Source: Candidatus Omnitrophota bacterium (GTDB taxonomy: Bacteria > Omnitrophota > Gorgyraeia > JABMRG01). From it: a DNA stretch of 64,000 bases. Positions 3,862-18,986 of the stretch are shown piece by piece (the stretch's first letter is position 1; every line of letters begins with the position of its first letter). Both the position numbers and the translations under genes were made by a program. A model generated the notes under the pieces. It was not told where the DNA came from. It saw only the letters and a list, made by a program, of their open reading frames with translations, and made no database searches. The DNA lies in NCBI GenBank assembly GCA_028716165.1, contig JAQUQI010000001.1, positions 126,538 through 190,537 on the forward strand. Direction: 5' to 3'.

Positions 3862-4745
3862 TTTTTATTTTTAAGGTTGTAAAACAATACTATGGTACCC
3901 ATTTTGCAGCCGGTCTCTTTGGCGACTACCGGGCATTTCACCATGAATAAAAAGAAAATAGGCCTTTTTTCGTTCGATAATGACTCGAAGTTCCCCTGGC
4001 CTTTACTAATAATCATATCCGCGCGCTTATATATCTGCTTAAATTGCTTGGAACACAGCCTAAGAAGCGTTCCCGGAGCGTCCGTGCCATTAGAAATTAT
4101 TCTGGCCGTTTTATCAATCCCGCAAACCTTGGCATCTTCAAATAACGCATCATTTATAACAGGCTTTTCTTTAACGGCGTAATAGATGTTCTTATCCGGA
4201 TATTCCTTTTTTATCTCTTCTATCAAAATCCGGTCAAATACTACCTCCCCTGCGTTATCGGCCAGGTATAAAATATCCCTTGCATTTCTAACTGCCCGCC
4301 TGAATTCTTTATAATGAAAAACCGATTGTTTACGTATAACTTTATTTTCCTCAGCGAGTATTTTCTTCAATTCCTCTCTTACGTTTAAATTATTCTTCGC
4401 GCCAAAATCTATAATGTTACCGGCAATAGCTAATTCTGCGGCCTCAAGAAGCCTGTCCCCGGCACGGTCAACTTTTGTCTTCAATTTTCCTAATAACCTT
4501 AACGCGCAACGGTTGCTTTTCTGCTTTATAGCCTGATACGGATCTCTATTAAAACCTACATCGCTTAAAAGCCTATAACCAATCCGGGCTATCTCCGGGG
4601 GACTTGCATTAAGGGATATCTTGGGTATCTCGCAGGCAAACGCATCAATAATCTTTTTTTGCTGTTTTGGACTTATTCGCACGATCCGGCAGCCCTCAAG
4701 CGCCTGCTTAAAAAAACAAGGAATACAATCTATGTATGTTTTCAT
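3849..4745 (-). CDS. DUF89-family protein (ARMT1-like damage-control phosphatase family), tentative
   Basis: It is 298 aa with an N-terminal CxxC (CIPCFFK) and an ISKGQGNFE-type motif. The overall pattern recalls DUF89. The family assignment is from memory, not a search. Confidence 0.45.
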   Translation of the reverse strand: MKTYIDCIPCFFKQALEGCRIVRISPKQQKKIIDAFACEIPKISLNASPPEIARIGYRLLSDVGFNRDPYQAIKQKSNRCALRLLGKLKTKVDRAGDRLLEAAELAIAGNIIDFGAKNNLNVREELKKILAEENKVIRKQSVFHYKEFRRAVRNARDILYLADNAGEVVFDRILIEEIKKEYPDKNIYYAVKEKPVINDALFEDAKVCGIDKTARIISNGTDAPGTLLRLCSKQFKQIYKRADMIISKGQGNFESLSNEKRPIFFLFMVKCPVVAKETGCKMGTIVLFYNLKNKKWNH

Positions 4746-4754
4746 AACTTTATC

Positions 4755-5546
4755 TTATTTAACCTTACCCCTTCTTTTTAACGTATCCTCATCGCTTAAG
4801 GAAACTATGTCTTTGCCATCTCTTTCATCAAACACCGAGACTACCTGTATTCCAGCGCAAGCGTCAAGAAAGTTATTTTTTATTTTAAAAATATCTTCTT
4901 TGGATAATGCCCTGACACTGCATTGCCTTAACGGAGTATTGACCTGAACCTCATCCGGTTTGATATAATTCGCCAGATATATTAGTTTATTAACGTCATT
5001 TCTATTGTTGTCTATCAACATCATCTGCAAAGCCAATTTCCCTTTATAACTTTTCCTAAAAACCTTTATTCCTTCTACGATATTTCCAAACTCTACTCCC
5101 TTAACAGGCCTGTTGATACTCTGTAAAGATTCGGGGGAATGGGCATCTAACTTGGCAACAACAAAATCCGCCGAAATAATCTCTTTTCTTACCTCATCCA
5201 TCCCCATCAAAGAACCATTAGTCAAAACCGCAACCGGCTCTTTGCGGATTAACTTTACCGCCTTAATCCCCTCGCCTAAATTGGCCGCCAGGGTAGGCTC
5301 TCCCCTTCCGGAAAAAGTAATATAATCAATATTGGTTTCCGGCAATTTTTGGAGTTCTTCAATAACCGCCTTAACAGGCACATAAACCTTCCGCTCACTT
5401 GCATATTCTTTAACCTGCCCTATTTGGCAATAAAGACAATCAAAATTGCAGATCTTCTCTGCTTGCGAAAGCAAATCTATGCCCAAGGAACTACCCAGCC
5501 GCCAAGACGGAACAGGGCCGTAGATATATTGAAATCCTTTTTTCAT
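4755..5546 (-). CDS. radical SAM protein (COG0731-like; GPVPSWRLG N-terminus)
   Basis: It has the CNFDCLYC CxxxCxxC cluster motif and a glycine-rich SAM region (FSGRGEPTL). Confidence 0.8.
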   Translation of the reverse strand: MKKGFQYIYGPVPSWRLGSSLGIDLLSQAEKICNFDCLYCQIGQVKEYASERKVYVPVKAVIEELQKLPETNIDYITFSGRGEPTLAANLGEGIKAVKLIRKEPVAVLTNGSLMGMDEVRKEIISADFVVAKLDAHSPESLQSINRPVKGVEFGNIVEGIKVFRKSYKGKLALQMMLIDNNRNDVNKLIYLANYIKPDEVQVNTPLRQCSVRALSKEDIFKIKNNFLDACAGIQVVSVFDERDGKDIVSLSDEDTLKRRGKVK

Positions 5547-6382
5547 TTCGTATCTCCGACGAATTCTTTTATTTTTGCCACAATCTTTACGAAAGACTCG
5601 GCTGACTTCGTTTTGTGCCCAAATGAAACAAATGGCGTACCCTTATCGCCAAATTCAACAAATTCCGGTTCAAACGGAACCCTGCCCAAAAACGGCACCT
5701 TCAACTCCTGCGCCGCCTTTTCGCCGCCGCCTTTCTTAAAAATATCTACTTCTCCGTGGCAGTGAGGGCAAACAAACCCGCTCATGTTCTCAATAATACC
5801 TACAACCGGAATCTTTATCTCCTTGGCGAATGATACGCTCTTTCTCGCGTCAAGTATGGCAACATCCTGTGGTGTAGTCACTATAATGATCCCGGTCACA
5901 TTGGGAATTAATTGACAGGCGCTTAACGGTTCATCGCCTGTTCCCGGGGGCGAATCGATAACAAGGTAATCCAGGTCACCCCAATTAACATCAGCTAAAA
6001 ATTGCCTTATAACCGCTGTTTTCAACGGCCCCCGCCAGATAATCGGCTGATCGGAATTGTATCCGGTAAGCGCGACACTCACTGCCTTTAAATTATCCGA
6101 AACCCCCACCGGCTGGATCCCGAATTCAAAATTATAAAGCGATTGTTTTTCTATTCCCAACATCTTAGCAATATTAGGACCGTGAAGATCAATATCTAAA
6201 ATACCCACCAAATTGCCCGAAAGTGACAATGCATACGCAAGATTTACCGCTACCGTCGATTTACCTACTCCGCCTTTACCACTCATAACAATAAGAGGGT
6301 GTTTTACCTTCGCCATCTTTTCCTTAAGGCGCTTCTCCTGTTCTAAATATTCCGCTTCTTTGGTTTCCATATTTCTCTCCAT
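5543..6382 (-). CDS. apbC: Mrp/NBP35-family Fe-S cluster carrier ATPase (ApbC)
   Basis: It has the deviant Walker A GKGGVGKST and the CPHC motif, and is the typical length. Confidence 0.9.
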   Translation of the reverse strand: MERNMETKEAEYLEQEKRLKEKMAKVKHPLIVMSGKGGVGKSTVAVNLAYALSLSGNLVGILDIDLHGPNIAKMLGIEKQSLYNFEFGIQPVGVSDNLKAVSVALTGYNSDQPIIWRGPLKTAVIRQFLADVNWGDLDYLVIDSPPGTGDEPLSACQLIPNVTGIIIVTTPQDVAILDARKSVSFAKEIKIPVVGIIENMSGFVCPHCHGEVDIFKKGGGEKAAQELKVPFLGRVPFEPEFVEFGDKGTPFVSFGHKTKSAESFVKIVAKIKEFVGDTK

Positions 6383-6386
6383 TTTG

Positions 6387-7103
6387 CTATCGCTTATTAA
6401 CTAAAACGTAATCTCGTTCTTTACGATAATCCCGCGGCTTATTTTGTATTTGTAAATTCTGAAGTTGTCCAAGCTCCTTTAGCCTGTTATGGATCAGCAC
6501 CCATGCGCAATCCCGCTCAGGGTCAACTTCACATTTACCCTTATTAACGCCTCCGCAAGGGCCGCTGCGAAGCCCCTTAGGGCAGCGTGTTACCGGACAA
6601 ATACCACCGGTAACACCGACAATGCACTCTCCGCACATAAGGCATTTCTTCTCAAAACGGTCTTCCTGCGGAGAAAGCCGGATTATCTCTCCTTGAAATA
6701 ACGTATCATTTGCCGGATAAACTGGTTTGCCTATAATCTCGGCTATCGCCTGGGTACCTCCACCGCAGGCAAGGCTAACAATGGAATCCGCTTCGGTTAT
6801 TTCTCTTTCTTTTCTCCGAAGCAATTTCTTTGACTCTAAAATATAACACGCCGGATTAAGGATATCCCATCCGGTTACTTCTTTGCCTTTAGCACTCAAT
6901 AATCCGGCCATTGCCTTTGTCTCAACCTCTCCTCCGGTTTTACAGGCAGTCGCGCAAAGAGCGCAACCAATCAAGAAAACAGCCGAGTCATTCTTGATGT
7001 AACTAACTATTTCATCTAATGGCTTCTGTTTTGTTATAATCATGCTTTCAATAAATAATCCGCTATTGCCCGATAAAGCGTGCTTACCGATAGAATAGTG
7101 CAA
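6387..7103 (-). CDS. Cys-rich protein with an MTHFR C-terminal-like (MetV-like) zinc-ribbon domain
   Basis: It carries CLMCGECIV...CPVTRCPKGLRSGPCGG, which resembles the CPK..NGPCGG signature of the methylene-THF reductase C-terminal/MetV family. The N-terminal half has more cysteines (GCALCATAC). The family call is tentative. Confidence 0.45.
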   Translation of the reverse strand: MHYSIGKHALSGNSGLFIESMIITKQKPLDEIVSYIKNDSAVFLIGCALCATACKTGGEVETKAMAGLLSAKGKEVTGWDILNPACYILESKKLLRRKEREITEADSIVSLACGGGTQAIAEIIGKPVYPANDTLFQGEIIRLSPQEDRFEKKCLMCGECIVGVTGGICPVTRCPKGLRSGPCGGVNKGKCEVDPERDCAWVLIHNRLKELGQLQNLQIQNKPRDYRKERDYVLVNKR

Positions 7104-7405
7104 TGCAGATGATCCTCCGGTAAACCTTTCAGTCGTTTAATCACTTCTCCCGCCGAAATAGATAAAGCATCCTTTACATTTTTGCCGTAAGCCAAATGTG
7201 CAACCATTGCGGCGCATGCCCGGGTAGCCCCGCATCCATCCGTATAATACCTGATGTCCGTGATTTTATTGTTTTCTATCACTAAATAAAACTCCATAAA
7301 ATCCCCGCAGGGACCTTTTAAATATGAAGAAGCCGCGGGATCGTTTATCCTGCCAAAAAACTTAGGGTCATTTAAAAGGCTTATAACCTCTTTAGGATAA
7401 CCCAC
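7040..7405 (-). CDS. NifU N-terminal/IscU-like Fe-S cluster scaffold protein
   Basis: GPCGD, DGCGATRAC and HCTIL form the three-Cys-plus-His pattern of IscU-type scaffolds. Length is 121 aa. Confidence 0.65.
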   Translation of the reverse strand: MGYPKEVISLLNDPKFFGRINDPAASSYLKGPCGDFMEFYLVIENNKITDIRYYTDGCGATRACAAMVAHLAYGKNVKDALSISAGEVIKRLKGLPEDHLHCTILSVSTLYRAIADYLLKA

Positions 7406-7461
7406 CGTTTCTTCCTTATTAACCGAATCTTTTATATAAACATCCTCCGGATACGATCTAT

Positions 7462-8502
7462 CTATACGGACGCGTATTCATTCTTATCTTCAAAAATAGG
7501 CTCTTTCCGGGCATTAACCGGTAATTTACACTCTCTGATAAATACCTTAAAATTCCCCAGATACACAGGCTGTCCGCTTGGTTCATTTGAAGCAAGATAT
7601 TGTTTTTTACTGTCTAAATCATCTATAATTTCCTTGTTACGAGAATACGCTGCAACAAAATCTAACCCCTTTTCGGTTAAAACAAATACCGGTATCTGCC
7701 GGGATAACTGCAATATCGCCAAAGAGCCGATTATCCGGCGCACATCAGAAGAAGCGCAGCTCCACACTAAATCAGCGTGGTCGCGTATGATATTAATCTT
7801 ATCTTTAGTTATCCCGGTCGTGCACACTGCTAAAGTAATTACGCTGACATCATATTCTTTTTCTATCGAACGAATCGCTTTTAAATTCTCCGCGGAATGA
7901 CCGCATACGCTAACCACTATGGTTTTATACCCGGCCCTTACCGCCTCCTGAACCCCGCGCGCCTGATCAATAAGCGCGTTTTCAAAGACTACCTGGCAGC
8001 CAAACGACTTAAGCTTCTTGATTATCCCTTTAACAGGAGAAGTCATCAATAGGCTATTCATCCGGGCGCCAATACCTTGAACAATCTTGGGCTTATCGGT
8101 AATCACCGTGCCTGCCCCGTCGCAGACTACAACCGCCGCGTCAATCACCTTTTTTCTCAATGAAAAACTGATCATTTCTGACGCGCCGTACGGTATCGCG
8201 ACATCATTAAATAAAATCTTTCTCTCATCAGTAAAGAACCCGTAATCTTTAATTTTTGACTCGATCGCCATCTTTATGACATTTTTGATGGCATCTTTAT
8301 CACTGTGACTCTTACCCCTGAAATCCTTATACAAATGTTCCGCTAAGGGACAATAAGTAAGCGTCGGATCAGTAATATTGATTACCTTTCCGTCAGAAAC
8401 ACTCACATACGATGAAAAATATTTTAGAACGTGAATATCCCGCCTATCCATAATATTCCTATATTTAAGATCGCAATTTTTCCCAAATACGGCAAATCTC
8501 AT
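7462..8502 (-). CDS. uncharacterized conserved protein (possibly DUF2099/'methanogenesis marker 8'-like)
   Basis: It is 346 aa, soluble, with CDGAGTVI and VCGHSAEN motifs. The family assignment is a low-confidence recollection. Confidence 0.35.
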   Translation of the reverse strand: MRFAVFGKNCDLKYRNIMDRRDIHVLKYFSSYVSVSDGKVINITDPTLTYCPLAEHLYKDFRGKSHSDKDAIKNVIKMAIESKIKDYGFFTDERKILFNDVAIPYGASEMISFSLRKKVIDAAVVVCDGAGTVITDKPKIVQGIGARMNSLLMTSPVKGIIKKLKSFGCQVVFENALIDQARGVQEAVRAGYKTIVVSVCGHSAENLKAIRSIEKEYDVSVITLAVCTTGITKDKINIIRDHADLVWSCASSDVRRIIGSLAILQLSRQIPVFVLTEKGLDFVAAYSRNKEIIDDLDSKKQYLASNEPSGQPVYLGNFKVFIRECKLPVNARKEPIFEDKNEYASV

Positions 8503-9316
8503 CCTTTACCGCCGAATCCTTATGTTCAATTATTGTCTTACCCTCTACCATAGATTCAACTACCGTTTTATCAAATTTTACCTTGCCGATTAGAGGAATG
8601 TTGTTAGCTTTACAATAGTTCTCTATTTTCTCTGACATCTCCGCGTTTAAATCATATTTATTAATTATCAACTGCGCTGGAACGTTAAAATGTTTCGTTA
8701 CCTCAATAACTCTAGCGGCGTCATGCAATCCGGATAACGTAGGCTCGGTTACCACAACCGCGCAGTCAATTCCTGAAAGCGAAGCGATAACCGGGCACCC
8801 TATGCCCGGAGCGCCGTCAATAATCACCCAGTCGCAATTATTCTTCTCTGCCAATTCTTTCGCCTGTTTCCTCACCAAAGACACTAATTTCCCTGAGTTC
8901 TCCTCTGCAATCCCAAGCTTAGCATGCACCATAGGACCGAAGCGTGTTTCTGAAATAAACCATTCTCCCGCGAGGTTTTCTTTCATCCTGATAGCCCCAA
9001 CCGGGCAAATATGGCTGCAAAAAGCGCATCCTTCGCAAGACACAGGGTCAATAACAAAACTGTCACTTATGGCATTAAAACGGCACACGGCAATACACTT
9101 GCCGCATTGCTGGCAGGTCTTTTTGTCTATCGCGGCGCTTAATCCGCTTCTAAAATCGTGCCGTTCTTTTATCTTGGGCTGTAATAACAAATGCAAATCC
9201 GCCGCGTCCACATCGCAATCAGCCATGACTTTATTTTTCGCCAAAGCGGCGAATGCCCCGGTAATCACGGTCTTGCCCGTTCCGCCCTTTCCACTGATAA
9301 CAACTATTTGTTTCAT
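8465..9316 (-). CDS. MinD/CooC-superfamily P-loop ATPase with an inserted 2x[4Fe-4S] ferredoxin domain
   Basis: It has the deviant Walker A SGKGGTGKT and two CxxCxxCxxxCP motifs (CQQCGKCIAVC, CEGCAFCSHICP) between the ATPase halves. It is a paralog of 12947..13807. Confidence 0.85.
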   Translation of the reverse strand: MKQIVVISGKGGTGKTVITGAFAALAKNKVMADCDVDAADLHLLLQPKIKERHDFRSGLSAAIDKKTCQQCGKCIAVCRFNAISDSFVIDPVSCEGCAFCSHICPVGAIRMKENLAGEWFISETRFGPMVHAKLGIAEENSGKLVSLVRKQAKELAEKNNCDWVIIDGAPGIGCPVIASLSGIDCAVVVTEPTLSGLHDAARVIEVTKHFNVPAQLIINKYDLNAEMSEKIENYCKANNIPLIGKVKFDKTVVESMVEGKTIIEHKDSAVKDEICRIWEKLRS

Positions 9317-9325
9317 AATATTCTC

Positions 9326-10783
9326 CTAAAAATAAATGTCTCTTTCGCCGCTCTTGATTTTTTTATAATATTCAACCAATGTCGGATAAAATAAAGGCAA
9401 CCGCTCTTTGACCTCTTTTATTTCTTTTGCTATTATCTCTTCCCCTGCCTTTTTCGTTGCTGAACTGGCAAAATCATCAAGCCATTCCCGAAATGTCAGG
9501 ATAGCATTCAATTTGCAAAATTGCCCCTCTTTGCCGGAACGTAAAAGCTCCATAATGCGATCCCCCGTTCTGCCGCAACGGTAACCGGCAGTACAAAATG
9601 ATGTGATAAACCCCATGCCTGCCAACTCAGCAATAACTTCATCAAGAGAGCGGGTATCTCCCAATAAAAATTGCTGCCGATTTTCTTCCTGGCTAAGATA
9701 TTTCTTGCTGTATACTCCGATTCCTATACGTGAAGACGCGTCGGTTTGCGTGCACCCAATAGGAATTATTTCATGCCTTATTCCCGGACTCTCCCGGGCA
9801 GTCAAGATCATCCCTGTATAGGGAATAGCAAGCCGGATCACCGCGGCAAGACGCTTAAACTCATCATCTGAAACTTTATATCCAGTTTCTAACACGCGCG
9901 CCGCGTTCATAGCGGGCTCAAGACGGGGAATAGAAACAGTATGCGGCCCGACACCGCTAAAGCGTTTCTCTAACTCACGGGCATGAGATACCAGACCCAT
10001 CACTTCAAATTTCCAATCATACAAACCGAACAGAACACCTATACCCACATCATCAATACCAGCCTCTAATGCCCGGTGCATGCAATAGAGCCGCCAGTGA
10101 TAATTCCCTTTTACCGTTGAAGCCGGATGGTATTTCTGATATGTTCTGCGGTGGTATGTCTCCTGAAAAACTTGATACGTCCCTATACCGGCTTCCTTCA
10201 ATATGGCAAGATCCGCTATTGAAAGCGGAGCGCAATTCACATTGACCCGGCGAATCTGGCCGTATCCATTCTTGGTTTTAACTTTTACTGAATAAACGGC
10301 TTTAAGAGAATCGGCAATGTAATGAACATCTGAATCGGGATGCTCCCCATATACCGTTACTAAGCGCTTATGGCCTATTTCACCAGCCAATACCTCTACC
10401 TCTTGGCTTATCTCATCAAGAGATAATTTTTTCCTTTCTATAGTGTTATCGCTTTTAAACCCGCAATACGCGCAATTATTAATACAAAGATTGCTGCAAT
10501 AAAGCGGGGCGAAAGTTACAATACGGTTATCATATACTTTCTTTTTTACTATTGTTGCCGTCTCAAATATTTCATCCCACAAACTATCATCACGCACGTT
10601 CAATAATGCCGCGGTTTCATTTAAATCAAGTGTTTCTATGGCGAGCGATTTCTGTAAAATATCCCTGATCTTAAACGAATCGGGATCTTGGTTAAGAATC
10701 AGGGCATTTGTAATGGAATCTTCATCAATAAAATCCCCTGTCGCCATATAACGGTTAATTTCTTCTGTTTTAATCATGATCAC
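9326..10783 (-). CDS. radical SAM enzyme, HydG/ThiH (tyrosine-lyase) family, HydG-like
   Basis: It has a CINNCAYCGF radical-SAM motif preceded by an N-terminal extension of about 90 aa like HydG. Length is 485 aa. A C-terminal Cys trio (FCTAGYRC...QFC) fits an auxiliary cluster. Confidence 0.7.
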   Translation of the reverse strand: MIMIKTEEINRYMATGDFIDEDSITNALILNQDPDSFKIRDILQKSLAIETLDLNETAALLNVRDDSLWDEIFETATIVKKKVYDNRIVTFAPLYCSNLCINNCAYCGFKSDNTIERKKLSLDEISQEVEVLAGEIGHKRLVTVYGEHPDSDVHYIADSLKAVYSVKVKTKNGYGQIRRVNVNCAPLSIADLAILKEAGIGTYQVFQETYHRRTYQKYHPASTVKGNYHWRLYCMHRALEAGIDDVGIGVLFGLYDWKFEVMGLVSHARELEKRFSGVGPHTVSIPRLEPAMNAARVLETGYKVSDDEFKRLAAVIRLAIPYTGMILTARESPGIRHEIIPIGCTQTDASSRIGIGVYSKKYLSQEENRQQFLLGDTRSLDEVIAELAGMGFITSFCTAGYRCGRTGDRIMELLRSGKEGQFCKLNAILTFREWLDDFASSATKKAGEEIIAKEIKEVKERLPLFYPTLVEYYKKIKSGERDIYF

Positions 10784-10791
10784 CTAACATG

Positions 10792-12141
10792 TTACATTTT
10801 TCCATACACATCCTGGGCCGCTAAAACTATCGGGAACATTGTCGGGGCGCTTGTCAAATAAGGGTGTGTAGCAACTTGCAAAGTCTCCAGTTCCGTAGCC
10901 GACATGCGCTTTTGAATCGCGACTCCTATAATATTTATCATCTGTGCGCATGACATGCCGCAACTTACCTGACCCCCTAGAATAATGCCAGACTGCTTGG
11001 AAAAAATAAGCTTGATCCTGCCCTTACAGGCACCCGGCAAAGAAGCTGGATGTTTATCTACGCCTTCGATGCTTCCAACAACGATCTCGAAACCTTCTTC
11101 GCGGGCGGTTTTTTCGGTGAGCCCGGCCGATCCTAAAACTAACCCGTCTATGTATGTCGAATATACCGCGATAGTGCCTTTATTTTCACGGATCACTTTG
11201 ATCTGATAAAGATTAGCTCCGGCAATCCTTGCCTCGGCGGTCGCGGTAGAAGCCAACATCACCGGAATCGCTTTACGAGTATAAAAATCTCTCTTACAAG
11301 AACAATCTCCGATCGCAAATATATCCGGATCGGTTGATGTGCGCATATACTCATCGGTCATAATACCCTTGCAAGAACCTATCTCTAATCCGGCATCTAC
11401 GGCTATTTTCACATTCGGCTTGGAACCTACCCCAAGAATTATCCCATCAACCGGAATTTCTTTCCCATCGGCAAACTTCACTCTTTCAACTTTATCTTGC
11501 CCGATTATTTCCTCTACCCTGGTATTAGTCAAAACCACGACTCCCTTTTCCCTTAACCGTGCTTCGGCCATCTGCGAAAATTCAGAGTCAAAAGAATTGG
11601 CAAGTATCTGCGGAAACATTTCTACTAACGTAACACTGATACCTTTGATTTTAGAAAGTTCATCAGCAAACTCTACACCGATAAACCCGCCGCCGATAAC
11701 AAGCACATTTTTGCACTTTTTGATCTCGGCTATCACGCCTTTCAAATACCCCATTTCTTTATTTATCGGATAAACCCCTCTTTTATCCACGCCCTTAATA
11801 GGCAAGATGATGGGAGTTGAACCCACCGCTAACACTAATTTTTCATAGGAATATATGTCTTTCTTTGCCGTTTCTATGGTTTTTTCTTTACGGTTGACGC
11901 GTACAGCGGAGTCAACAACGACTTCAACATTATTCTTCTCCAAAGACGCCATGCCTAATTTATTTTCATCAGGATTAGCAAGACTGGCAAACATATAGGG
12001 AATTCCGCAAGGAATGACTCCATCCGCCACATCCTTCATTACCATGATGCTTTTCCCAGGGTAGTATTTTCTGGCGGTTACCGCGCATACCACTCCGGCG
12101 GGACCAGCGCCAACAACCAATATATCCGTTTTTTTATTCAT
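10792..12141 (-). CDS. FAD-dependent pyridine nucleotide-disulfide oxidoreductase (NADH oxidase/CoA-disulfide reductase family)
   Basis: It has the GAGPAG FAD motif, an active-site Cys region (GVIPCG) and a second Rossmann fold (VIGGGFIGVE). Length is 449 aa. Confidence 0.85.
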   Translation of the reverse strand: MNKKTDILVVGAGPAGVVCAVTARKYYPGKSIMVMKDVADGVIPCGIPYMFASLANPDENKLGMASLEKNNVEVVVDSAVRVNRKEKTIETAKKDIYSYEKLVLAVGSTPIILPIKGVDKRGVYPINKEMGYLKGVIAEIKKCKNVLVIGGGFIGVEFADELSKIKGISVTLVEMFPQILANSFDSEFSQMAEARLREKGVVVLTNTRVEEIIGQDKVERVKFADGKEIPVDGIILGVGSKPNVKIAVDAGLEIGSCKGIMTDEYMRTSTDPDIFAIGDCSCKRDFYTRKAIPVMLASTATAEARIAGANLYQIKVIRENKGTIAVYSTYIDGLVLGSAGLTEKTAREEGFEIVVGSIEGVDKHPASLPGACKGRIKLIFSKQSGIILGGQVSCGMSCAQMINIIGVAIQKRMSATELETLQVATHPYLTSAPTMFPIVLAAQDVYGKM

Positions 12142-12190
12142 CTTGTCACCCTTTTAATGATTCCATCATTACGCAGATGCTGTGAATCAC

Positions 12191-12535
12191 TCATATATTG
12201 TTATCATGGCAAAATTGTATGGCGGCTTCGCTTTCCGCACCCGGCTGAATCCATGCCCGCTTTATGCCTTTCTGAAAATATTCCTGTAAGATGGTTTCGA
12301 TCGCTGGCGGAGGCGTAACTATATCAACAACATCCACTACACACGGTATATCGCTTACAATTTTATAACAAACCTTACCTTCAATTTCGCTTAAACGGAG
12401 ATTAACAGGAAAAACCTCATAGCCTCTATGTATTAAGTCCTTTAGAATCTTATAGGCAAATTTAAATTCATTTCTGAATGAACCTACTACGGCAAATCTT
12501 TTCTGTTTTAAAAATTCTTTAACTAAATCTTCCAT
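12191..12535 (-). CDS. CoA-binding domain protein (YccU-like)
   Basis: FAVVGSFRNEFKFAYKILKDL is the CoA_binding_2 pattern. Length is 114 aa. Confidence 0.75.
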   Translation of the reverse strand: MEDLVKEFLKQKRFAVVGSFRNEFKFAYKILKDLIHRGYEVFPVNLRLSEIEGKVCYKIVSDIPCVVDVVDIVTPPPAIETILQEYFQKGIKRAWIQPGAESEAAIQFCHDNNI

Positions 12536-12539
12536 TTAC

Positions 12540-12992
12540 CTATTCTATTTTCTCACCCGCGCCAGAACCGCTGTTCGCATCAAAAATTTCTTCTATTTCT
12601 ATTTTGAGCGCTCCCTTAGCGGGATACTTTTCTCCCATCGATTTCATCCATTTCCTGGCGTCTTCATATAGAGGCCCTGAATTTAAATAACTGCACCTAC
12701 CTTTGATTTGATACGACTCCTTGCCGCTTCTCACAAGAATCGCGACTAAAGGATTCTCAAGAATATTCGCTAATGTCTTATTCATATAGTTATCAACAAT
12801 GATGATAGTTTCGTCATCCAGAAGATATTTCGCTCCCGCATTGCAAACATTAGGAACACCGTTTTTTGACGATGTAGCAAGCTGATGAACCGGCTCGTTA
12901 TTAAAAATATCTTTTACTTTCTTAGGTATTTTCATTAAAAGTAGCCTTACTCCTTCTGAGATATTTCTTTTAAAATCTGTTCGTATAAACAC
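12540..12992 (-). CDS. pyridoxamine 5'-phosphate oxidase-like FMN-binding split-barrel protein
   Basis: The VHQLATSSKNGVPNV...IVDNYMNKT pattern is PNPOx-like. The real start is probably the internal Met (MKIPKK), which would remove the overlap with the upstream gene. Confidence 0.55.
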   Translation of the reverse strand: MFIRTDFKRNISEGVRLLLMKIPKKVKDIFNNEPVHQLATSSKNGVPNVCNAGAKYLLDDETIIIVDNYMNKTLANILENPLVAILVRSGKESYQIKGRCSYLNSGPLYEDARKWMKSMGEKYPAKGALKIEIEEIFDANSGSGAGEKIE

Positions 12993-13807
12993 AGAAAATC
13001 TTTCTTATAGTCGGGGAATACCTTAACCATCGGCTCCCCTTTTGAATAAGCCATGGCGATTTCTTTTCTAAAGGGTATTCTCATTAGCACGGGTATATTT
13101 TCTTTCTTACAGTATTCCTCGGTTTTATTATTCCCCAAATCAGCGCGGTTGATTACCACCCCAAACGGGATCTTTAATTTCCTTAGGACCTCTACTGCCA
13201 AAATTAAGTCATTTAAACCAAAAGGCGTTGGCTCGGTGACTAAAACGCAAAAATCGCTTTCCTTAACCGAACCAACCACAGGACAGGATGTTCCGGGAGG
13301 AGCATCGATAATAACTGTTTTTTTAAGATTAATATGCTCTTTGACCTGGCGGATAAGCGGCGGAGACATTGCTTCGCCGATATTAAGTTTCCCGTGTATG
13401 AATTCAATCTCTCCGCAAACGCCAAGTTCCACTACCCCTATTTCTCTATTTACTTCTTTTATTGCCTTTTCCGGGCATAGGGCACTGCAAGCGCCGCAAC
13501 CGTGGCATAAATTAGCAAAAACTAAAGTGCTTCCCTTATTTCCGTTTTGGCCTGGCAAAACCGCGATCGCGTGAAATACGCATACCTTGGCGCATTTTCC
13601 GCAATAAGTGCATTTGGATTCGTCAATCTCCGGAACAGGAATATAGGCTTTTTGCTGTTTTTCGATATTAGACTTTAAGAAAATATGCGCGTTGGGTTCC
13701 TCCACATCGCAATCCAAAAACTGCACGTTATTGATAGATAAAGCCAAATTAACCGCGATCGTCGTCTTGCCTGTCCCGCCTTTTCCACTTGCTATTGAGA
13801 TAATCAT
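12947..13807 (-). CDS. MinD/CooC-superfamily P-loop ATPase with an inserted ferredoxin domain (second copy)
   Basis: It has ASGKGGTGKTT plus the CTYCGKCAKVC and CHGCGACSALCP motifs. Confidence 0.85.
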   Translation of the reverse strand: MIISIASGKGGTGKTTIAVNLALSINNVQFLDCDVEEPNAHIFLKSNIEKQQKAYIPVPEIDESKCTYCGKCAKVCVFHAIAVLPGQNGNKGSTLVFANLCHGCGACSALCPEKAIKEVNREIGVVELGVCGEIEFIHGKLNIGEAMSPPLIRQVKEHINLKKTVIIDAPPGTSCPVVGSVKESDFCVLVTEPTPFGLNDLILAVEVLRKLKIPFGVVINRADLGNNKTEEYCKKENIPVLMRIPFRKEIAMAYSKGEPMVKVFPDYKKDFLCLYEQILKEISQKE

Positions 13808-13810
13808 ATA

Positions 13811-14419
13811 TTATGTACTCCGCTCGGCTATAAGCACGCTTTGCACGATGCTAGCGCATTCATTTATAGTAAAACCTTTATCAATGAAATATTTTTTTGC
13901 TTCTTCAAGGCGATTCCTAAAATAATCATGTGTCCTGCCTTCATTCGTGTGGCAGGCATTAATAATTTCTAATCCTTTATCGCTAAAATCGCTTAAGACC
14001 ACCTTACCGCCATGGCGTAATAAACGGGTTATTTCGTCTAATACCGCCAACGGTCTTTCAAGATGATGAAATACATTAATAGAAAAAATAATATCAAAAC
14101 TGTGATCTAAAAAACCCAAGCGTTCAGCGTCCTCAATTTTAAATATTGCCTGTTTTGCAAGGCCAAAATAACACAGATTTAGCATAGCGATCTCTTGCTC
14201 ATCCTTAGAGATATCTATGCTGGTGAAAGTAAATCCGCGCTTTGCCAAAGCGAGAGCAAAATGACCTTTACCTGTTCCGATTTCAAGGATTTGCCCAGAA
14301 ATAGGCAGGGATTTATCAAGGATAAAATCTCTTTCCTTCTCTATGTCGTAGCCAAAGCTTCGGTAATAGTTTACTCTCTCTAAATACCTTTTATGATTTA
14401 CTATAACTTCCTTATCCAA
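13811..14419 (-). CDS. class I SAM-dependent methyltransferase
   Basis: ILEIGTGKGHFALALAKRG is motif I. Length is 202 aa. Confidence 0.8.
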   Translation of the reverse strand: MDKEVIVNHKRYLERVNYYRSFGYDIEKERDFILDKSLPISGQILEIGTGKGHFALALAKRGFTFTSIDISKDEQEIAMLNLCYFGLAKQAIFKIEDAERLGFLDHSFDIIFSINVFHHLERPLAVLDEITRLLRHGGKVVLSDFSDKGLEIINACHTNEGRTHDYFRNRLEEAKKYFIDKGFTINECASIVQSVLIAERST

Positions 14420-14428
14420 ATTATTCCC

Positions 14429-14596
14429 TTATTCTCTTCTCATCTTGGTCCCGCATTTAGGACAATTCACATCGTAACAAGGAGCCCCTTGTTGATGCGG
14501 CACTTTTTCTCCACATTTGGGACATATACAATTCCCTCCAGGACCAGCTCCCGACTGATTACCTCCCATCCTGCCTCTGCCTTGGCCATTTGGCAT
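14429..14596 (-). CDS. small Gly-rich zinc-ribbon protein (55 aa; DUF5320-related C-terminal module)
   Basis: My own translation gives MPNGQGRGRMGGNQSGAGPGGNCICPKCGEKVPHQQGAPCYDVNCPKCGTKMRRE. It is below the 60-aa cutoff of the track. It is a near-duplicate of the C-terminal half of the next ORF. Confidence 0.5.
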   Translation of the reverse strand: MPNGQGRGRMGGNQSGAGPGGNCICPKCGEKVPHQQGAPCYDVNCPKCGTKMRRE

Positions 14597-14617
14597 GATA
14601 ACCCTCCTTTGCTTTTA

Positions 14618-14833
14618 CTATTCTCGTACCATTCTTATGCCGCATTTAGGGCAGCTCATCGAGCCACAAGGTGTGCCTGCTTGATGAATAACTTTAGTCC
14701 CGCAGCTTGGACAAACACAATTACCTCCCGGCCCCGCGTTGCCTCGTCTACCTCTGCCCATACCCATTCCCCTGCCCATCCCTGATCCTTGGCCCAACGG
14801 CCCAGTTCCATCTCGTCCTGGCATAATAATCAC
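14618..14833 (-). CDS. DUF5320-like protein variant with a C-terminal zinc ribbon
   Basis: The N-terminus MPGRDGTGPLGQGSGMGRGMGMGRG matches the DUF5320 signature. The C-terminus GPGGNCVCPSCG...CPKCG replaces the usual coiled coil. A GGAGGTG ribosome-binding site is present. Confidence 0.6.
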   Translation of the reverse strand: MIIMPGRDGTGPLGQGSGMGRGMGMGRGRRGNAGPGGNCVCPSCGTKVIHQAGTPCGSMSCPKCGIRMVRE

Positions 14834-14836
14834 CTC

Positions 14837-15088
14837 CTAATCGTGCTCTTCAAACATTTTATCCTGCGTTGGATCCTTCTTTCTGATCCACTCAATCAAC
14901 ATTGCCGCGTGCTCTTTTTCTTCGTTCATATTGTGCGTAAGAAGCTTTTTCAACGACTCATCAGCAGTAGCGTCTATACGTTCCTGATAAAAATCAACCG
15001 CCTCCAATTCCTCGCGTAAAGATTTTCTTGCTCTTTCTAAATCAACATGCTTTGGATCCATTTTTTCCAACGGTTCAAAGAATGGCAT
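14837..15088 (-). CDS. encapsulated-ferritin-like (EncFtn family) four-helix ferroxidase-like protein, no targeting peptide
   Basis: EELEAVDFYQERIDATADESLKKLLTHNMNEEKEHAAMLIEWIRK aligns closely with the EncFtn core, including the EExxH motif. Length is 83 aa. Confidence 0.65.
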   Translation of the reverse strand: MPFFEPLEKMDPKHVDLERARKSLREELEAVDFYQERIDATADESLKKLLTHNMNEEKEHAAMLIEWIRKKDPTQDKMFEEHD

Positions 15089-15105
15089 CGCACCTCCTTG
15101 CGTTT

Positions 15106-16284
15106 TTATAACCGTGCTGCTTGTCTTTTAATTTCAGCGGCCTTATCCGTTAATTCCCAACTAAAATCCGCATCGTTACGGCCAAAATGGCCATAACAAG
15201 CGGTTTTTCTGTATATCGGCCGTAGTAATTTCAGGGAATCAATGATGCCTCTCGGCGTAAGCTTAAAATTCTCTCGAATAAGCTTAACCAATTTCTCATC
15301 GGGCAACTTTCCTGTACCATAAGTCTCCACGTATACAGATAACGGTTCGGCGTATCCTATAACATAAGCCAACTGGACAAGAAATTTATCAGCTAAGCCA
15401 GCCGCAACCATATTTTTGGCGATATAACGACACATATACGCCGCAGAACGGTCAACTTTTGTTGGGTCTTTCCCGGAAAATGCCCCTCCGCCATGCGCAA
15501 TGCTTCCGCCATAGGTATCTACGACAATCTTTCTTCCGGTCATACCAGTATCGGATTGCGGGCCACCGATTAAAAACTTACCCGTTTGATTAACATAATA
15601 TTTTGTATCCTTATCTATAAACTGCTCTAAAACCGGCTTAGCCACAATATCAATAAGCTCTTTACGTGCTTTCGGGGTAATATTTTTACCTGTTTTATCT
15701 AAAATCTTATCCGTATGCTGGCACGCAAGCACAACCGCATCTACACGATTAGGCTTGCCATCATGATATTCCACTGTAACTTGTGATTTACAATCGGGCC
15801 CTAAATATTTTAAAGTATCGGCTCTACGCACATCCGCCATGAGCTTTACCAATTTATGGGCGAGAGTTATCGGAAGCGGCATTAACTCTTTAGTCTCATT
15901 GCAAGCGTAGCCGAACATAATTCCCTGATCGCCCGCGCCGCCTGCATCAACGCCCTGGGCAATATCTGGAGATTGACTATTAATAGAATTTATAATCGCG
16001 CACGTTTCATAATCAAACCCGTATTTAGGATGCGTATATCCGATATTTTTGATAATCTCACGGGCAAGCTTCTGAATATTGATATATGTAGATGTCGTAA
16101 TTTCTCCGCCAACAACTAAAAGCCCCATTGTAACGTACGTCTCGCACGCAACTCTGCTTCTATGTTTATTGCGATCGAGCTTTAAAACCTCATCCAATAC
16201 TCCGTCTGATATTTGATCACACAACTTATCCGGATGCCCTTCTCCAACTGACTCGGAAGAAAAAAAATACTTACGTTTATTCAT
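15106..16284 (-). CDS. metK: S-adenosylmethionine synthase
   Basis: [29 protein letters not shown] and DTYGG motifs are all present. Length is 392 aa. Confidence 0.95.
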
Positions 16285-16292
16285 GAATTCTC

Positions 16293-16460
16293 CTAAATTG
16301 AAATCGCTTCATTTGGGCATTGATTCACACAAACTCCACACTCAACGCAATCATCGCTGATTACGGCTTTTTCTTTTTCTATCTTTATCGCATTAACAGG
16401 ACAAATATCCTTACACGTGCCGCAACCATTGCATTTCTTTTTATCTACTTTCGCAGCCAT
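16293..16460 (-). CDS. 2x[4Fe-4S] ferredoxin (55 aa)
   Basis: My own translation gives [55 protein letters not shown]. There is a GAGGAG ribosome-binding site 7 nt upstream. It is below the track cutoff. Confidence 0.75.
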
Positions 16461-16472
16461 AACCGCTCCTCT

Positions 16473-16850
16473 TTATTTCTTCTTACCCGGCATTCCGGCA
16501 TGCGAACTGACACTAGGGCCAGAAACCGCTTTGTATTCTCCTTTTTTATATTTCTCGACTGCTTCACTAACCGTACCCGAGGCTCCGGTAAATATCTCTA
16601 TTCCTGCCGCCTGCAATGTCTGAAAAGCGTTAGGCCCGACATTCCCGGTTACCACAGCTTTAATCTTTTTAGAAGCGACAAACTGCGCCGATTGAATACC
16701 CGCGCCGCCCATTGACTCAATATTAGGATTTTCGATCTCTTCAAATTCTAAAGTATCCGTATCAATAATAATAAAGTGCTGACACCTGCCAAAACGAGGA
16801 TCTACCTTAGAATCCAAACTGCCGCCCTCTGAAGTCACGCATATTCTCAT
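16473..16850 (-). CDS. dinitrogenase FeMo-cofactor biosynthesis domain protein (NifB/NifX/NafY-like)
   Basis: MRICVTSEGGSLDSKVDPRFGRCQHFIIID...AVVTGNVGPNAFQTLQAAGIEIF matches the typical PF02579 pattern. Confidence 0.8.
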   Translation of the reverse strand: MRICVTSEGGSLDSKVDPRFGRCQHFIIIDTDTLEFEEIENPNIESMGGAGIQSAQFVASKKIKAVVTGNVGPNAFQTLQAAGIEIFTGASGTVSEAVEKYKKGEYKAVSGPSVSSHAGMPGKKK

Positions 16851-16864
16851 ATATTTTCGCCTCC

Positions 16865-17263
16865 TTAATGGTCACAATCTTCTTTATGTGGATGGTCACA
16901 TTCATCTTTTTCTAAACCGTACCCCTTACCCGCTCCGGGCTTGCAAAGACTCTCGCCGCTTTCCAGCGTTCCTTTTTTCAGCTGTCCGATTACTTCGTCG
17001 ATTTTTACGCTTATCCCTACGATAGTCTTAATGCTGTATTCCTCAAAAAGTGACGTTGCCCGCGCTCCCATGCCACCGGCAATAATACAATTTACACCCT
17101 TTTTATGCAAAAACTCCGGAATCGCACCCGGCTGATGTCCGGGATTCGCTACTCCTGTCCTTTTCGTTACTTTGCCATTTTCGATGTCAACAAGGGTAAA
17201 AGTTGGACATCTACCAAAATGGGCAGACACAAATTCTCCATCTGTAGATATGGCTGCACGCAT
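16865..17263 (-). CDS. dinitrogenase FeMo-cofactor biosynthesis domain protein (NifX-like) with a His/Cys-rich tail
   Basis: AHFGRCPTFTLVDIENGKV...CIIAGGMGARATSLF is the family pattern. The C-terminus is CDHPHKEDCDH. Confidence 0.8.
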   Translation of the reverse strand: MRAAISTDGEFVSAHFGRCPTFTLVDIENGKVTKRTGVANPGHQPGAIPEFLHKKGVNCIIAGGMGARATSLFEEYSIKTIVGISVKIDEVIGQLKKGTLESGESLCKPGAGKGYGLEKDECDHPHKEDCDH

Positions 17264-17336
17264 AATATCTCCTTTTAAACTGGATAGGATAAAGGAATAG
17301 AGATTAAAATCTATCCCTTTACCCTATCTGGATTGT

Positions 17337-17897
17337 TTACTCACTCTTCTCTGCCTGATTTTTCTCAAGCATCTCAATGCGGCCTTGAATATCCTCAAGC
17401 TGTTTTTTTAAGAAATCAGCTTCACCTTTTAGGATATCCGCCTCCTGCTTAGGTTTCATTTCAGGCGCATAAGGATACGTCCCGCCAAAAGCAGGAAATC
17501 CCATAGATGCTCTCTGCCAGCCGGAAAGACCGGTTGTGTAAAACCAATTTCTCCGGCCTCTGCCGCCGCCTCGGCCAAAAAACCCTCTGCCCATGCCAAC
17601 ATAACCTCCGCCGGACACAGGATTCATATAACCGGCCATAGGATAACCCGCACAGAGACCAGCCCCTCTTCCTGTCATCGGTCCTAATCCCATAGGTCCA
17701 GTTCCATCTCCTCTAGGCATAACAAACACCCCCTTTCTTAAACTACTTTTGGATTCTTTATCACCAGAATCTATTTTAGCTACGCAAAAACCCATTCCCC
17801 TGCCGGTAAACGACCCTGCTCCCCTGGGTCCTGTCCCATCAAATCCTGGCATAATCATCACCCCCCCCCCATTAATGGAATTGATAATCATTCTCAT
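17337..17897 (-). CDS. DUF5320-family protein (two Gly-rich MPG(F/R)DGTGP modules plus a C-terminal coiled coil)
   Basis: It has MPGFDGTGPRGAGSFTGRGMG and MPRGDGTGPMGLGPMTGRGAGLCAGY, followed by LKGEADFLKKQLEDIQGRIEMLEK. The real start is probably ATG 17850-17852 or 17856-17858, just downstream of a G10 tract. Confidence 0.7.
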   Translation of the reverse strand: MRMIINSINGGGVMIMPGFDGTGPRGAGSFTGRGMGFCVAKIDSGDKESKSSLRKGVFVMPRGDGTGPMGLGPMTGRGAGLCAGYPMAGYMNPVSGGGYVGMGRGFFGRGGGRGRRNWFYTTGLSGWQRASMGFPAFGGTYPYAPEMKPKQEADILKGEADFLKKQLEDIQGRIEMLEKNQAEKSE

Positions 17898-17919: not shown

Positions 17920-18390
17920 CTACCTCTTAATACAGGTATTGCACAAACCGTAAAACTGGATCAAATGATTCGTGATCTTAAAATCATATTTTTGTGACAG
18001 GCCTTTTTCTGTTTGATTAAGCAACTCAACCTCCTCATCGATAAAATCGGTATAATTGATAACACGGTTGCATTGCGTGCATATCAAATGATGATGGTGA
18101 TGACTGCCCTTAGGCCCCTCTGCTAACTCATATCGCGCTCTTTTATCGCCAAAATCGAACTTAAAAACCAGGCCTAATCCAGCTAAAACCTCCAATGTCC
18201 TATATATCGTAGCCAATCCAATGCTGGGACATTTAGGATGCGCTTCCATATAAATATCTTCCGCGCTTAAATGTTTATCTGATTTGGAAAGCACTGCCAA
18301 TATAGCTTCCCTGCCGGGCGTTATTCTATAACCACACCCTCTAAATTTGCCATGCCACCATGGCGCACCAGCACAATTTCTTCTTGGCAT
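17920..18390 (-). CDS. fur: Fur-family metal-responsive transcriptional regulator
   Basis: It has a winged-helix N-terminus, an HHHHH run and C-terminal CxxC...CxxC pairs (CTQC, CNTC). Confidence 0.85.
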   Translation of the reverse strand: MPRRNCAGAPWWHGKFRGCGYRITPGREAILAVLSKSDKHLSAEDIYMEAHPKCPSIGLATIYRTLEVLAGLGLVFKFDFGDKRARYELAEGPKGSHHHHHLICTQCNRVINYTDFIDEEVELLNQTEKGLSQKYDFKITNHLIQFYGLCNTCIKR

Positions 18391-18402
18391 ATTATATCCC
18401 TT

Positions 18403-18426
18403 GATAGTTGATAATGATTACCATTT
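18403..18426 (-). promoter_or_regulatory. Fur-box-like site immediately upstream of fur
   Basis: GATAGTTGATAATGATTACCATTT contains AATGGTAATCATTATC on the coding strand, one mismatch from the core of the 19-bp Fur consensus GATAATGATAATCATTATC. Confidence 0.45.
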
Positions 18427-18505
18427 ACAATAGTCTATTCTTCTTTGTGTTTTTTGTCAAGCATTTTTTTAACGATACCGTATTTATGCGCGTGAAAACT
18501 TTTTA

Positions 18506-18985
18506 TTAAAGTTTAGTACGCTTGGGGATTTTTCCGGTCTTGAAGTGTTTATCAATCCAGCCGCTTTTGACCTTATCCCGACTGTCGAAGTGTTTTACAT
18601 ATGGTTTGACATCCAGAAGCGGGGTACCGTCTAACATGTCAACCTCTGAAAAAACGATGGTGTCCCTCTTAACGCTTTTGATTTTGACGATCGAAAATCC
18701 TATATGGTTCGGCCTATGAGGACTGCGTATCGCGAATATTCCGTGTTCTGTATCTTCAAGAAACGGCCTGCCGGTAAGCCTCTCTTCTTTTGAGCGGTTA
18801 AAATGATAGATCAGAATAAGATGCGAAAACCCTTCGATATCCTTTAAGCCAGCTTTGTATTTACGAAACAATCTAATGGTACCAACAACTCCCCGCTTGA
18901 ACTTACCCTGAATGGGTATGCCTTTGGGTTCTTTATACGGTGTATTAATGATGCCTATCGGCTTGATTGTAATAGACTTTTTCAT
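18506..18985 (-). CDS. tsaA: tRNA (adenine37-N6)-methyltransferase TsaA/TrmO (YaeB family)
   Basis: GIFAIRSPHRPNHIGFSIVKI and GTPLLDVKPY are YaeB signatures. Confidence 0.85.
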   Translation of the reverse strand: MKKSITIKPIGIINTPYKEPKGIPIQGKFKRGVVGTIRLFRKYKAGLKDIEGFSHLILIYHFNRSKEERLTGRPFLEDTEHGIFAIRSPHRPNHIGFSIVKIKSVKRDTIVFSEVDMLDGTPLLDVKPYVKHFDSRDKVKSGWIDKHFKTGKIPKRTKL

Positions 18986-18986
18986 C

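Follow-up and report, generated by a model that had tools for sequence, protein, structure and literature searches.

What is a dense string of iron-sulfur (Fe-S) cluster genes for, when it carries hydG, the gene of a hydrogenase maturase, and has no hydrogenase beside it? The window analyzed here is a 64,000-nucleotide stretch of contig JAQUQI010000001.1 from a Candidatus Omnitrophota bacterium. A sequence-only reading had singled out positions 4755–17897 as an orphan cluster in which a HydG-like tyrosine lyase, S-adenosylmethionine (SAM) supply, and Fe-S carriers might build an uncharacterized metallocofactor. On present evidence, the locus does not reveal a new cofactor pathway. The explanation we favor, with confidence about evenly balanced between belief and doubt, is a Fur-headed string of Fe-S carriers of the orange-protein (ORP) type that is conserved in Omnitrophota and has recruited an orthodox HydG as a client. 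The string joins the ORP complex, whose function is unclear after fifteen years, with DUF2099 in bacteria and with the question of which native carriers serve HydG.

Positions 4755–17897 form the middle portion of a same-strand gene string of ~17 kb with fur as its first gene. The string runs past these limits on both sides, at the fur end and at the opposite end, which holds an ARMT1-like gene and a gene for a metallo-β-lactamase (MBL)-fold protein. Its genes all lie on the minus strand, with spacings of 3–73 nt or 4-nt overlaps. The dense packing and gene content first noticed in this region hold; the shared orientation is not special to the cluster, since every large open reading frame (ORF) of the 64 kb is on the minus strand, and the GC skew is negative throughout. 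Gene identities were obtained from Pfam and NCBIfam profile searches. Pfam scans of most sizeable ORFs in the window (a few, including a 2426-aa ORF at 56617–63897, were unscanned) returned no hydrogenase, nitrogenase, or carbon monoxide dehydrogenase, and HydA, HydE, and HydF of Thermodesulfovibrio found no match by tblastn over the whole window, as the sequence-only reading had stated for such clients. The window has bacterial traits, namely a peptide deformylase and a bacterial-type MetK, and nearly all of the closest organism-named relatives of its HydG and DUF2099 proteins come from Omnitrophota metagenome-assembled genomes (MAGs).

Comparison with related loci separates a recurring core from additions. 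The comparison set comprised 13 Omnitrophota genome loci, 80 metagenome loci, and a few more, with 88 distinct DUF2099 loci, onto which the window proteins were mapped by tblastn; the genome scan was seeded with a single DUF2099 protein and reached close relatives only. Frequencies refer to the 23 ‘wide’ loci, which cover 6 kb or more upstream and 4 kb or more downstream. Dozens of related loci share the order of the core genes, which makes the cluster more than a chance assembly and shows a core neighborhood kept among relatives. The most frequent member is the NifX-like gene NifXb (87% of the wide loci), followed by the two MinD-ferredoxin ATPase genes and a small Gly-rich zinc-ribbon gene (78% each), the Mrp carrier (74%), fur, DUF5320, and the second NifX-like gene, NifXa (70% each), and IscU, a 263-aa radical-SAM protein, the ARMT1-like gene, and a methyltransferase (65% each). 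Together with DUF2099, these genes form the core, and the MBL-fold gene is a common downstream member (65%). A CoA-disulfide reductase (CoADR)-like flavoprotein (48%) and a CoA-binding protein (39%) are semi-conserved, and a 55-aa ferredoxin (57%) and an EncFtn-like protein (39%) are variable members. HydG (22%), metK and a MetV-like gene (30% each), and a PNPOx-like gene (13%) are variable, lineage-specific additions outside the core, and hydE, hydF, and hydA occur in none of the wide loci. At 22%, 30%, and 30% against 65–87% for the core, the place in a common pathway that had been proposed for HydG, metK, and the MetV-like protein finds no support.

Gene order around DUF2099 gives the same picture at finer scale. 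Among the 88 loci, the second of the MinD-ferredoxin ATPase genes (copy B) directly precedes DUF2099 in 48 of the 69 in which that neighbor is seen, and IscU directly follows it in 50 of 67. At 40 readable junctions upstream of copy B, the adjacent gene is the other ATPase gene (copy A) in 21 cases, the CoADR-like gene in 12, and HydG in 5; the HydG-less loci show clean gaps of 19–119 nt there, with no hydG remnants. The low frequency of HydG and its presence at only five of these junctions place it outside the core.

By gene content, the core reads as an enlarged, Fur-headed variant of the orange-protein gene set of Desulfovibrio, in which two MinD-like ATPases, each bearing two [4Fe-4S] motifs, are joined by single-domain PF02579 proteins and an Mrp carrier (PMC6345978). 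Four likenesses to the set of D. vulgaris Hildenborough carry this kinship. First, two paralogous MinD/CbiA P-loop ATPases with an inserted 2x[4Fe-4S] domain, copy A (12947–13807; CbiA, ParA, and Fer4 families) and copy B (8465–9316; profiles and motifs), correspond to Orp3 and Orp4; each has a GKGGTGKT loop and two CX2CX2CX3C motifs, and the two are 33% identical to each other. Second, two single-domain PF02579 (Di-Nase) proteins correspond to Orp8 and Orp5: NifXa (16865–17263; 73.7 bits), with an HFGRC motif and the CDHPHKEDCDH tail seen earlier from the letters alone, and NifXb (16473–16850; 92.7 bits). Third, an Mrp/NBP35-type carrier ATPase of 279 aa (5543–6382; PF10609, 316.8 bits; GKGGVGKS and CPHC motifs) corresponds to part of Orp9, or MrpORP, whose Di-Nase domain shares the HFG.C motif and terminal CDH. 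In the MrpORP model of NCBIfam, Mrp covers positions 1–250 of 365 (358.6 bits; cutoff 450) and NifXa covers positions 265–360 (92.9 bits), so that the two proteins together amount to a split MrpORP. Fourth, both sets occur only in anaerobes. The nearest solved relatives of NifXa are TM1816 and MTH1175.

The differences from the Desulfovibrio set are equally plain. The two-domain Mrp/Di-Nase fusion is not present, and its halves are separate genes ~10 kb apart; the genes here all run one way in a single string, where Desulfovibrio has two divergent operons; and the host belongs to another phylum. The conserved DUF2099, IscU, radical-SAM, ARMT1-like, methyltransferase, and zinc-ribbon genes are extra. 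Regulation differs as well, with fur and a Fur box in place of the sigma-54 promoters and OrpR of Desulfovibrio: sigma-54 consensus matches are no commoner than chance, with none upstream of the string, and no enhancer-binding protein gene is among the scanned ORFs of the window (a few being unscanned). The module had been described as one that recurs in anaerobes with unknown function; the combination of NifX, MinD-ferredoxin, and Mrp is that of the ORP set, and those who study the ORP complex still describe its role as unclear (PMC8359166).

The string is probably iron-regulated and Fur-autoregulated, judging from its upstream sites. The Fur-family gene (17920–18390; PF01475, 113.7 bits) is preceded, 20 nt upstream of its start codon, by a Fur-box-like palindrome, GTAAATGGTAATCATTATC (18410–18428), which is the sole match with three or fewer mismatches to the Escherichia coli 19-mer consensus in the 64 kb, where 0.03 would be expected. 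A related palindrome, mostly AATGGAAACCATT, stands upstream of fur in the other 23 loci, making 24 of 24 examined, at a comparable place, ~35–75 nt short of where the extracted upstream sequence ends. No such site lies upstream of feoB (33150–35228) or of the DtxR-like gene (35753–36262) in the window. A consensus scan also gave a sigma-70-like promoter, TTGACA-17-TAGACT (18432–18460); the match alone is no better than chance, and what lends it weight is its place immediately before the Fur box. A spacing of 22 nt separates fur from the gene that follows, from which fur and the genes downstream would form a single transcript. The Fur protein scores 133 bits with the Fur model and 88 bits with the PerR model of NCBIfam, both below cutoff. 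In one related locus, L106, the cluster is flanked by genes for a TonB receptor, ExbBD, and TonB and by FeoAB.

HydG itself (9326–10777) appears from its sequence to be an orthodox H-cluster maturase with no sign of a changed function. It matches TIGR03955 over its full length at 449.8 bits (cutoff 312.15), in contrast to 250.2 bits with the ThiH model TIGR02351 (cutoff 380), and among solved chains it scores 442 bits with the HydG of Thermoanaerobacter italicus (4WCX) and 149 bits with ThiH (7pd1). The assignment to HydG over ThiH made from the letters alone is thus upheld, as is the C-terminal Cys trio; the N-terminal extension claimed for it is not, since relative to ThiH the protein has none and instead carries a C-terminal domain of ~90 residues beyond the ThiH alignment. 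ThiH identity was rejected on the sub-cutoff score, on this extra domain, and on the lack of thiG and thiS in the window. Like 4WCX and the TIGR03955 family, the protein has the radical-SAM CX3CX2C motif (CINNCAYC, residues 98–105), the BATS domain, and a C-terminal domain with three Cys. The trio is spaced C395-X5-C401-X19-C421; its first and third members are in register with the classical CX2CX22C, whose literal spacing is absent, and the second is shifted by three residues. This shift is common to a large HydG subfamily: the motif CTAGYRCGRTG occurs in 118 of the 120 best homologues, including the HydG of canonical hyd loci. A new HydG paralogue, suggested by the CX5C spacing, was therefore discarded, the same motif being found in canonical hyd operons and no conserved residue being lost. 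Identity to the HydG of canonical hyd loci is 68–70%, and the clade of the window HydG differs from the rest by just five conservative differences among near-invariant columns. In Thermodesulfovibrio the canonical order is hydA, a TM1266-like gene, a lyase, hydG, a small ORF, hydF, and hydE; in Makaraimicrobium, also of the Omnitrophota, it is hydA, a TM1266-like gene, hydF, hydG, a small ORF, and hydE. Unlike these loci, the window is without hydE, hydF, hydA, the TM1266-like gene, and the small ORF after hydG. The protein has an exact database match when read from the ATG that is the third codon of its ORF, and none when read from the GTG start; a JGI metagenome contig carries the same sequence.

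The small ORF is an observation in its own right. A conserved ORF of 92–110 aa, without a Pfam match, overlaps hydG at its 3′ end in loci of three phyla, both canonical ones and those where hydG stands alone; the cluster-borne hydG of the window is not followed by it. It lies at 11481–11813 in locus L003, 11481–11759 in L005, 11475–11771 in L020, 5647–5937 in L023, and 3994–4278 in L024; the products of L005/L006 and L020 are 36–47% identical by tblastn, and those of L023 and L024 agree in position and size only. Locus L005, from Thermoanaerobacter uzonensis, has a HydG of the CTAGYRC subtype alone beside spoIVA with no hyd genes nearby, and the 4WCX HydG is of the CTACYR subtype, so that the genus Thermoanaerobacter may hold two HydG subtypes.

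HydG has joined the cluster at least three independent times, in different positions and from different HydG lineages. In the clade of the window, whose members are 78–96% identical, hydG is placed between the CoADR-like gene and the copy B ATPase. The HydG of L106 (501 aa) is 64–66% identical to all others, falls outside the window clade in a neighbor-joining tree, and is encoded between Mrp and the small radical-SAM protein. In L073, HydG is of the classical CX2C type, 42% identical, and stands in the order MinD fragment, IscU, DnaJ, HydG, small radical SAM. Because the entries number at least three and are independent, HydG and the cluster are likely to be linked in function. The independent insertions in L106 and L073 weaken the view of HydG as a random passenger, which the synteny tables would suggest. 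In this the sequence-only reading is favored, and the role of keystone in a new pathway does not, HydG being accessory and to all appearance orthodox. In another Omnitrophota genome, hydG adjoins Zip, HypA, VIT1, and FeoAB genes.

The protein between copy B and IscU, previously set down as an uncharacterized 346-aa product, belongs to the DUF2099 or methanogenesis-marker-8 family (7462–8451; PF09872, 261.3 bits), with a marginal match to TIGR03275 (233.9 bits; cutoff 232.7). It most likely begins at Met18 of the 346-aa ORF and is then 329 aa long. Four Cys are invariant, and the predicted fold is partly FrhB-like, although there is no Pfam FrhB_FdhB sequence match; from these features DUF2099 would be a redox protein, perhaps one that carries an Fe-S cluster. 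A sequence search of the PDB gave nothing useful, and our search for literature on DUF2099, methanogenesis marker 8, and DUF5320 found none. The family is small, accounting for 278 clusters (50% identity) in a set of 1.84 billion representatives, and its long forms carry N-terminal extensions without a Pfam domain. To our knowledge, marker 8 was originally defined as confined to methanogenic archaea. The protein of the window matches the family models, and it differs from that definition in its bacterial host, in the lack of methanogenesis genes in the window, and in a C-terminal extension of ~60 residues. Nearly all organism-named relatives are Omnitrophota MAGs. ‘Methanogenesis marker 8’ is not methanogen-specific, and it is tied to Fe-S handling.

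Combining these identities with precedents from the literature, we can propose how the string might work. IscU (7040–7405; PF01592, 86 bits; NifU_clost, 93 bits against a cutoff of 188) would assemble clusters. The MinD-ferredoxin ATPases and NifX-like carriers would receive [4Fe-4S] clusters from Mrp, in the way that Orp3, Orp4, and Orp8 of Desulfovibrio receive theirs from MrpORP in vitro (PMC6345978). The MinD-ferredoxin ATPases would spend ATP on moving or inserting clusters, DUF2099 would be a redox partner, and the CoADR-like flavoprotein and CoA-binding protein may keep sulfur reduced or supply sulfide. HydG would receive carrier-delivered iron and cluster repair. Each synthon that HydG releases takes the dangler iron with it, and NfuA reloads both this iron and the clusters in vitro; organisms without NfuA must, according to the authors, rely on other, uncharacterized carriers (PMC12501116). 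An enzyme that spends its dangler iron at each turnover needs reloading by a carrier, and on this ground HydG is probably a client of the Fe-S carriers encoded around it, with its partners HydE, HydF, and HydA encoded elsewhere in the genome. HydF is annotated in several Omnitrophota MAGs, and group A3 [FeFe]-hydrogenases have been reported for the phylum (PMC10066038). The repeated recruitment of hydG thereby names Mrp, IscU, the NifX-like proteins, and the MinD-ferredoxin ATPases as candidate HydG carriers. Compared with housekeeping pairs of IscU and Mrp/ApbC, the scaffold keeps its three Cys and Mrp keeps its deviant Walker A and CXXC motifs, and delivery from carrier to HydG has its in-vitro precedent in NfuA; in contrast to housekeeping systems, the cluster has no cysteine desulfurase, HscAB, or Nfu domain, and both IscU and Mrp score below the equivalog cutoffs of NCBI.

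Several points weigh against this proposal. The Fur-family protein could equally be PerR. The function of the ORP complex is obscure and its cell-division role only proposed, so ‘ORP-like’ expresses kinship and not mechanism. The predicted FrhB-like fold of DUF2099 spans only ~150 of its 329 residues, and the cluster has no cysteine desulfurase. Three recruitments among ~90 loci are suggestive and fall short of proof, and ~0.9 would be expected by chance if the loci were independent and every genome had hydG. The 10 kb around each cluster-borne hydG contain no hydE, hydF, or hydA, and none of nine HydF accessions (from 10 clusters, mostly labeled Omnitrophota) is near the accessions of cluster-borne HydG.

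A second explanation, possible and on balance unlikely, concerns the HydG-less core, which would be an assembly line for a special metal-sulfur center whose client lies inside the cluster, either DUF2099 or an ORP-like complex. The position of DUF2099 between a MinD-ferredoxin ATPase (48 loci) and IscU (50 loci) speaks for it, as do its four invariant Cys, partly FrhB-like predicted redox fold, and small family, and the orange protein of Desulfovibrio does hold a Mo/Cu-sulfide cluster (PMC6345978). Set against this, the core has no transporter or chaperone for Mo, W, Cu, or Ni, DUF2099 stands apart from the ATPases in L073, L077, and L083, and the literature search turned up no experimental work on DUF2099.

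The sequence-only proposal that HydG supplies CO/CN chemistry, metK supplies SAM, and the NifX-like and MinD-ferredoxin proteins build a novel organometallic cofactor for a client elsewhere now appears improbable. It could draw on the three or more independent HydG entries, on the lack of hydE, hydF, and hydA near the cluster-borne copies, on the failure to find a same-genome hydF among the few HydF proteins compared, and on the role of NifX-family domains in carrying complex clusters during nitrogenase maturation (PMC5524996). It meets 35 of 40 junctions without HydG and with clean gaps, metK in less than a third of the wide loci (30%), and a HydG whose conserved positions are undiverged at 68–70% identity to canonical-operon copies. 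Moreover, hyd maturase genes are often scattered, commonly so in clostridial and Thermotoga genomes. A related thought, in which we place equally little trust, is that the core (the ORP-type ATPases, NifX-like carriers, DUF5320, DUF2099, IscU/Mrp, and the small radical-SAM protein) builds a non-standard metal-sulfur center with DUF2099 as its catalytic or redox heart and that, in lineages with a recruited hydG, the Fe(CO)2(CN) unit of HydG is handed there instead of, or besides, to HydE/HydF; if true, HydG chemistry would have a second use in biology.

An explanation of the front of the cluster as a store also has little to commend it in our judgment. IssA of Pyrococcus furiosus joins a NifX-family domain to a cationic tail rich in Gly and aromatic residues, with a pI of 10.7, and binds thioferrate (PMC5524996); the DUF5320, NifX-like, and EncFtn-like proteins could be an iron-sulfur or iron store of this type in which the tail has become a separate DUF5320 protein. 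The DUF5320 protein (17337–17897; PF17253, 123.7 bits over two stretches) has two MP(G/R)xDGTGP...GRG..C motifs, a middle rich in Gly, Arg, and aromatic residues, and a C-terminal coiled coil; residues 14–140 have a pI of 10.7, with 28% Gly and 12% aromatic residues, and so match the IssA tail in pI and composition. Further points of likeness are the NifX-family (IPR003731) domain encoded nearby, the predicted disorder of the cationic segment, and an iron and sulfur context with fur, a ferritin-like gene, and a CoADR-type enzyme alongside. The likeness is one of composition, however; the cationic segment sits on a separate protein, and neither NifX-like protein has the IssA architecture of PF02579 and a long cationic tail on one chain. 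The two are 132 and 125 aa long, with pI 6.3 and 6.7, and their tails are short and acidic or of Cys/His type. In addition, a classical Fur-repressed operon turns on in iron shortage, which suits supply over storage.

Finally, a cluster for cell division or polar positioning, in which the MinD-like ATPases do the positioning and the Fe-S genes merely mature them, is very improbable: ORP proteins have been proposed to act in septum positioning, MrpORP is found at the cell pole, and loss of OrpR alters cell shape (PMC3897727, PMC6345978, PMC8359166), but the string has no division genes, its context is one of iron regulation and uptake, and even those who put the idea forward call it unclear (PMC8359166).

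The remaining core genes were largely named correctly from the letters alone, and profile matches bear out the second radical-SAM protein, Mrp, the IscU-like scaffold, the two ATPases, and the small ferredoxin. The 263-aa radical-SAM protein (4755–5546; PF04055, 57 bits) has its CX3CX2C motif at residue 33, and every NCBIfam score is far below cutoff. It is followed by the ARMT1-like protein of the DUF89 damage-control phosphatase family (3849–4745; PF01937, 227 bits) and by the MBL-fold protein (2111–2824; Lactamase_B). The class I SAM methyltransferase (13811–14419) matches Methyltransf_11 at 75 bits, with no NCBIfam model above cutoff. Three proteins had been counted as DUF5320-type; the one at 17337–17897 is strong, and the others are small Gly-rich zinc-ribbon proteins, one of them with a weak score. 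The first of these, of 68 aa (14618–14824), has a Gly/Arg N-terminus and a Cys4 zinc ribbon; its weak PF17253 score was obtained with the 71-aa GTG-start ORF (14618–14833), and the 68-aa Met-start form has no NCBIfam match. Its 55-aa paralogue (14429–14596), also with a Gly/Arg N-terminus and zinc ribbon, was assigned from its translation without a profile scan and from its L001 counterpart, which is 58% identical to the 68-aa protein by tblastn.

Among the variable and semi-conserved genes, Pfam matches agree with most earlier names. The 55-aa 2x[4Fe-4S] ferredoxin (16293–16460) matches Fer4 families, metK (15106–16284) has three S-AdoMet_synt domains, and the MetV-like protein (6387–7043; PF12225, 108.5 bits) is a Cys-rich DUF5981 protein with 13 Cys; for the latter and for the 263-aa radical-SAM protein, sequence searches of the PDB gave no useful relative. 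The CoADR-like protein (10792–12141; Pyr_redox_2, 207 bits) is a single-Cys flavoprotein of the CoADR/CoA-persulfide reductase/Nox group, whose nearest solved chains are NoxA-3 (6pfz), a CoA-persulfide reductase (8a56), and CoADR (4fx9); the active-site Cys is kept, PCGIPY aligning with RCGLPY of the solved relatives. Next to it is the CoA_binding_2 protein (12191–12535; PF13380, 96.5 bits). The ORF at 12540–12935, once taken for a thioredoxin, encodes a PNPOx-like FMN-binding protein (PF01243, 63.9 bits), and the true thioredoxin gene lies outside the cluster at 789–1106. A gene overlooked in the first reading encodes a small EncFtn-like, ferritin-like protein (14837–15088; PF22277, 107.7 bits; TIGR04535, 95 bits against a cutoff of 125), and no encapsulin shell gene turned up in the window Pfam scans, in which a few ORFs were unscanned.

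Elsewhere in the window, Pfam identifies a racemase, a thiamine-pyrophosphate enzyme, methyltransferases, MscS, a porin, FeoB, a DtxR-like repressor, transporters, TPR and SpoIIE proteins, MacB/TolC, a pyridoxal-phosphate enzyme, and an amidotransferase. The 2426-aa ORF (minus strand) reaches toward the window end and is adjoined by a 411-aa ORF (55194–56429, minus strand) that resembles, by eye only, a mutator-type transposase; giant genes have been reported from Omnitrophota (bioRxiv 10.1101/2023.11.21.568195). Two paralogous membrane proteins (1444–2106 and 24539–25174, minus strand) are 56% identical and conserve the His motifs HPLH, PHAGHVL, and LFHM; the first, scanned singly, matches no Pfam family, and the second was scanned only in the concatenated pair. 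One copy closes the conserved string in 39% of the wide loci, and the pair may be an unclassified metal permease. The Rrf2-family gene (2875–3126, minus strand) is cut to 83 aa, leaving the helix-turn-helix part only, in comparison with 136–155 aa in the close relatives L021 and L022, and thiC, which in these two separates the deformylase gene from the Rrf2 gene, is missing in the window. In L021, the closest relative, with a HydG 96% identical to that of the window, a peroxiredoxin gene (3322–4068) stands between the two NifX-like genes, and HypA and thioredoxin genes come after the string. Directly upstream of fur in the window are TrmO-like and DsrE-like genes (18506–19307, minus strand), and TrmO is found near the cluster in 30% of the wide loci.

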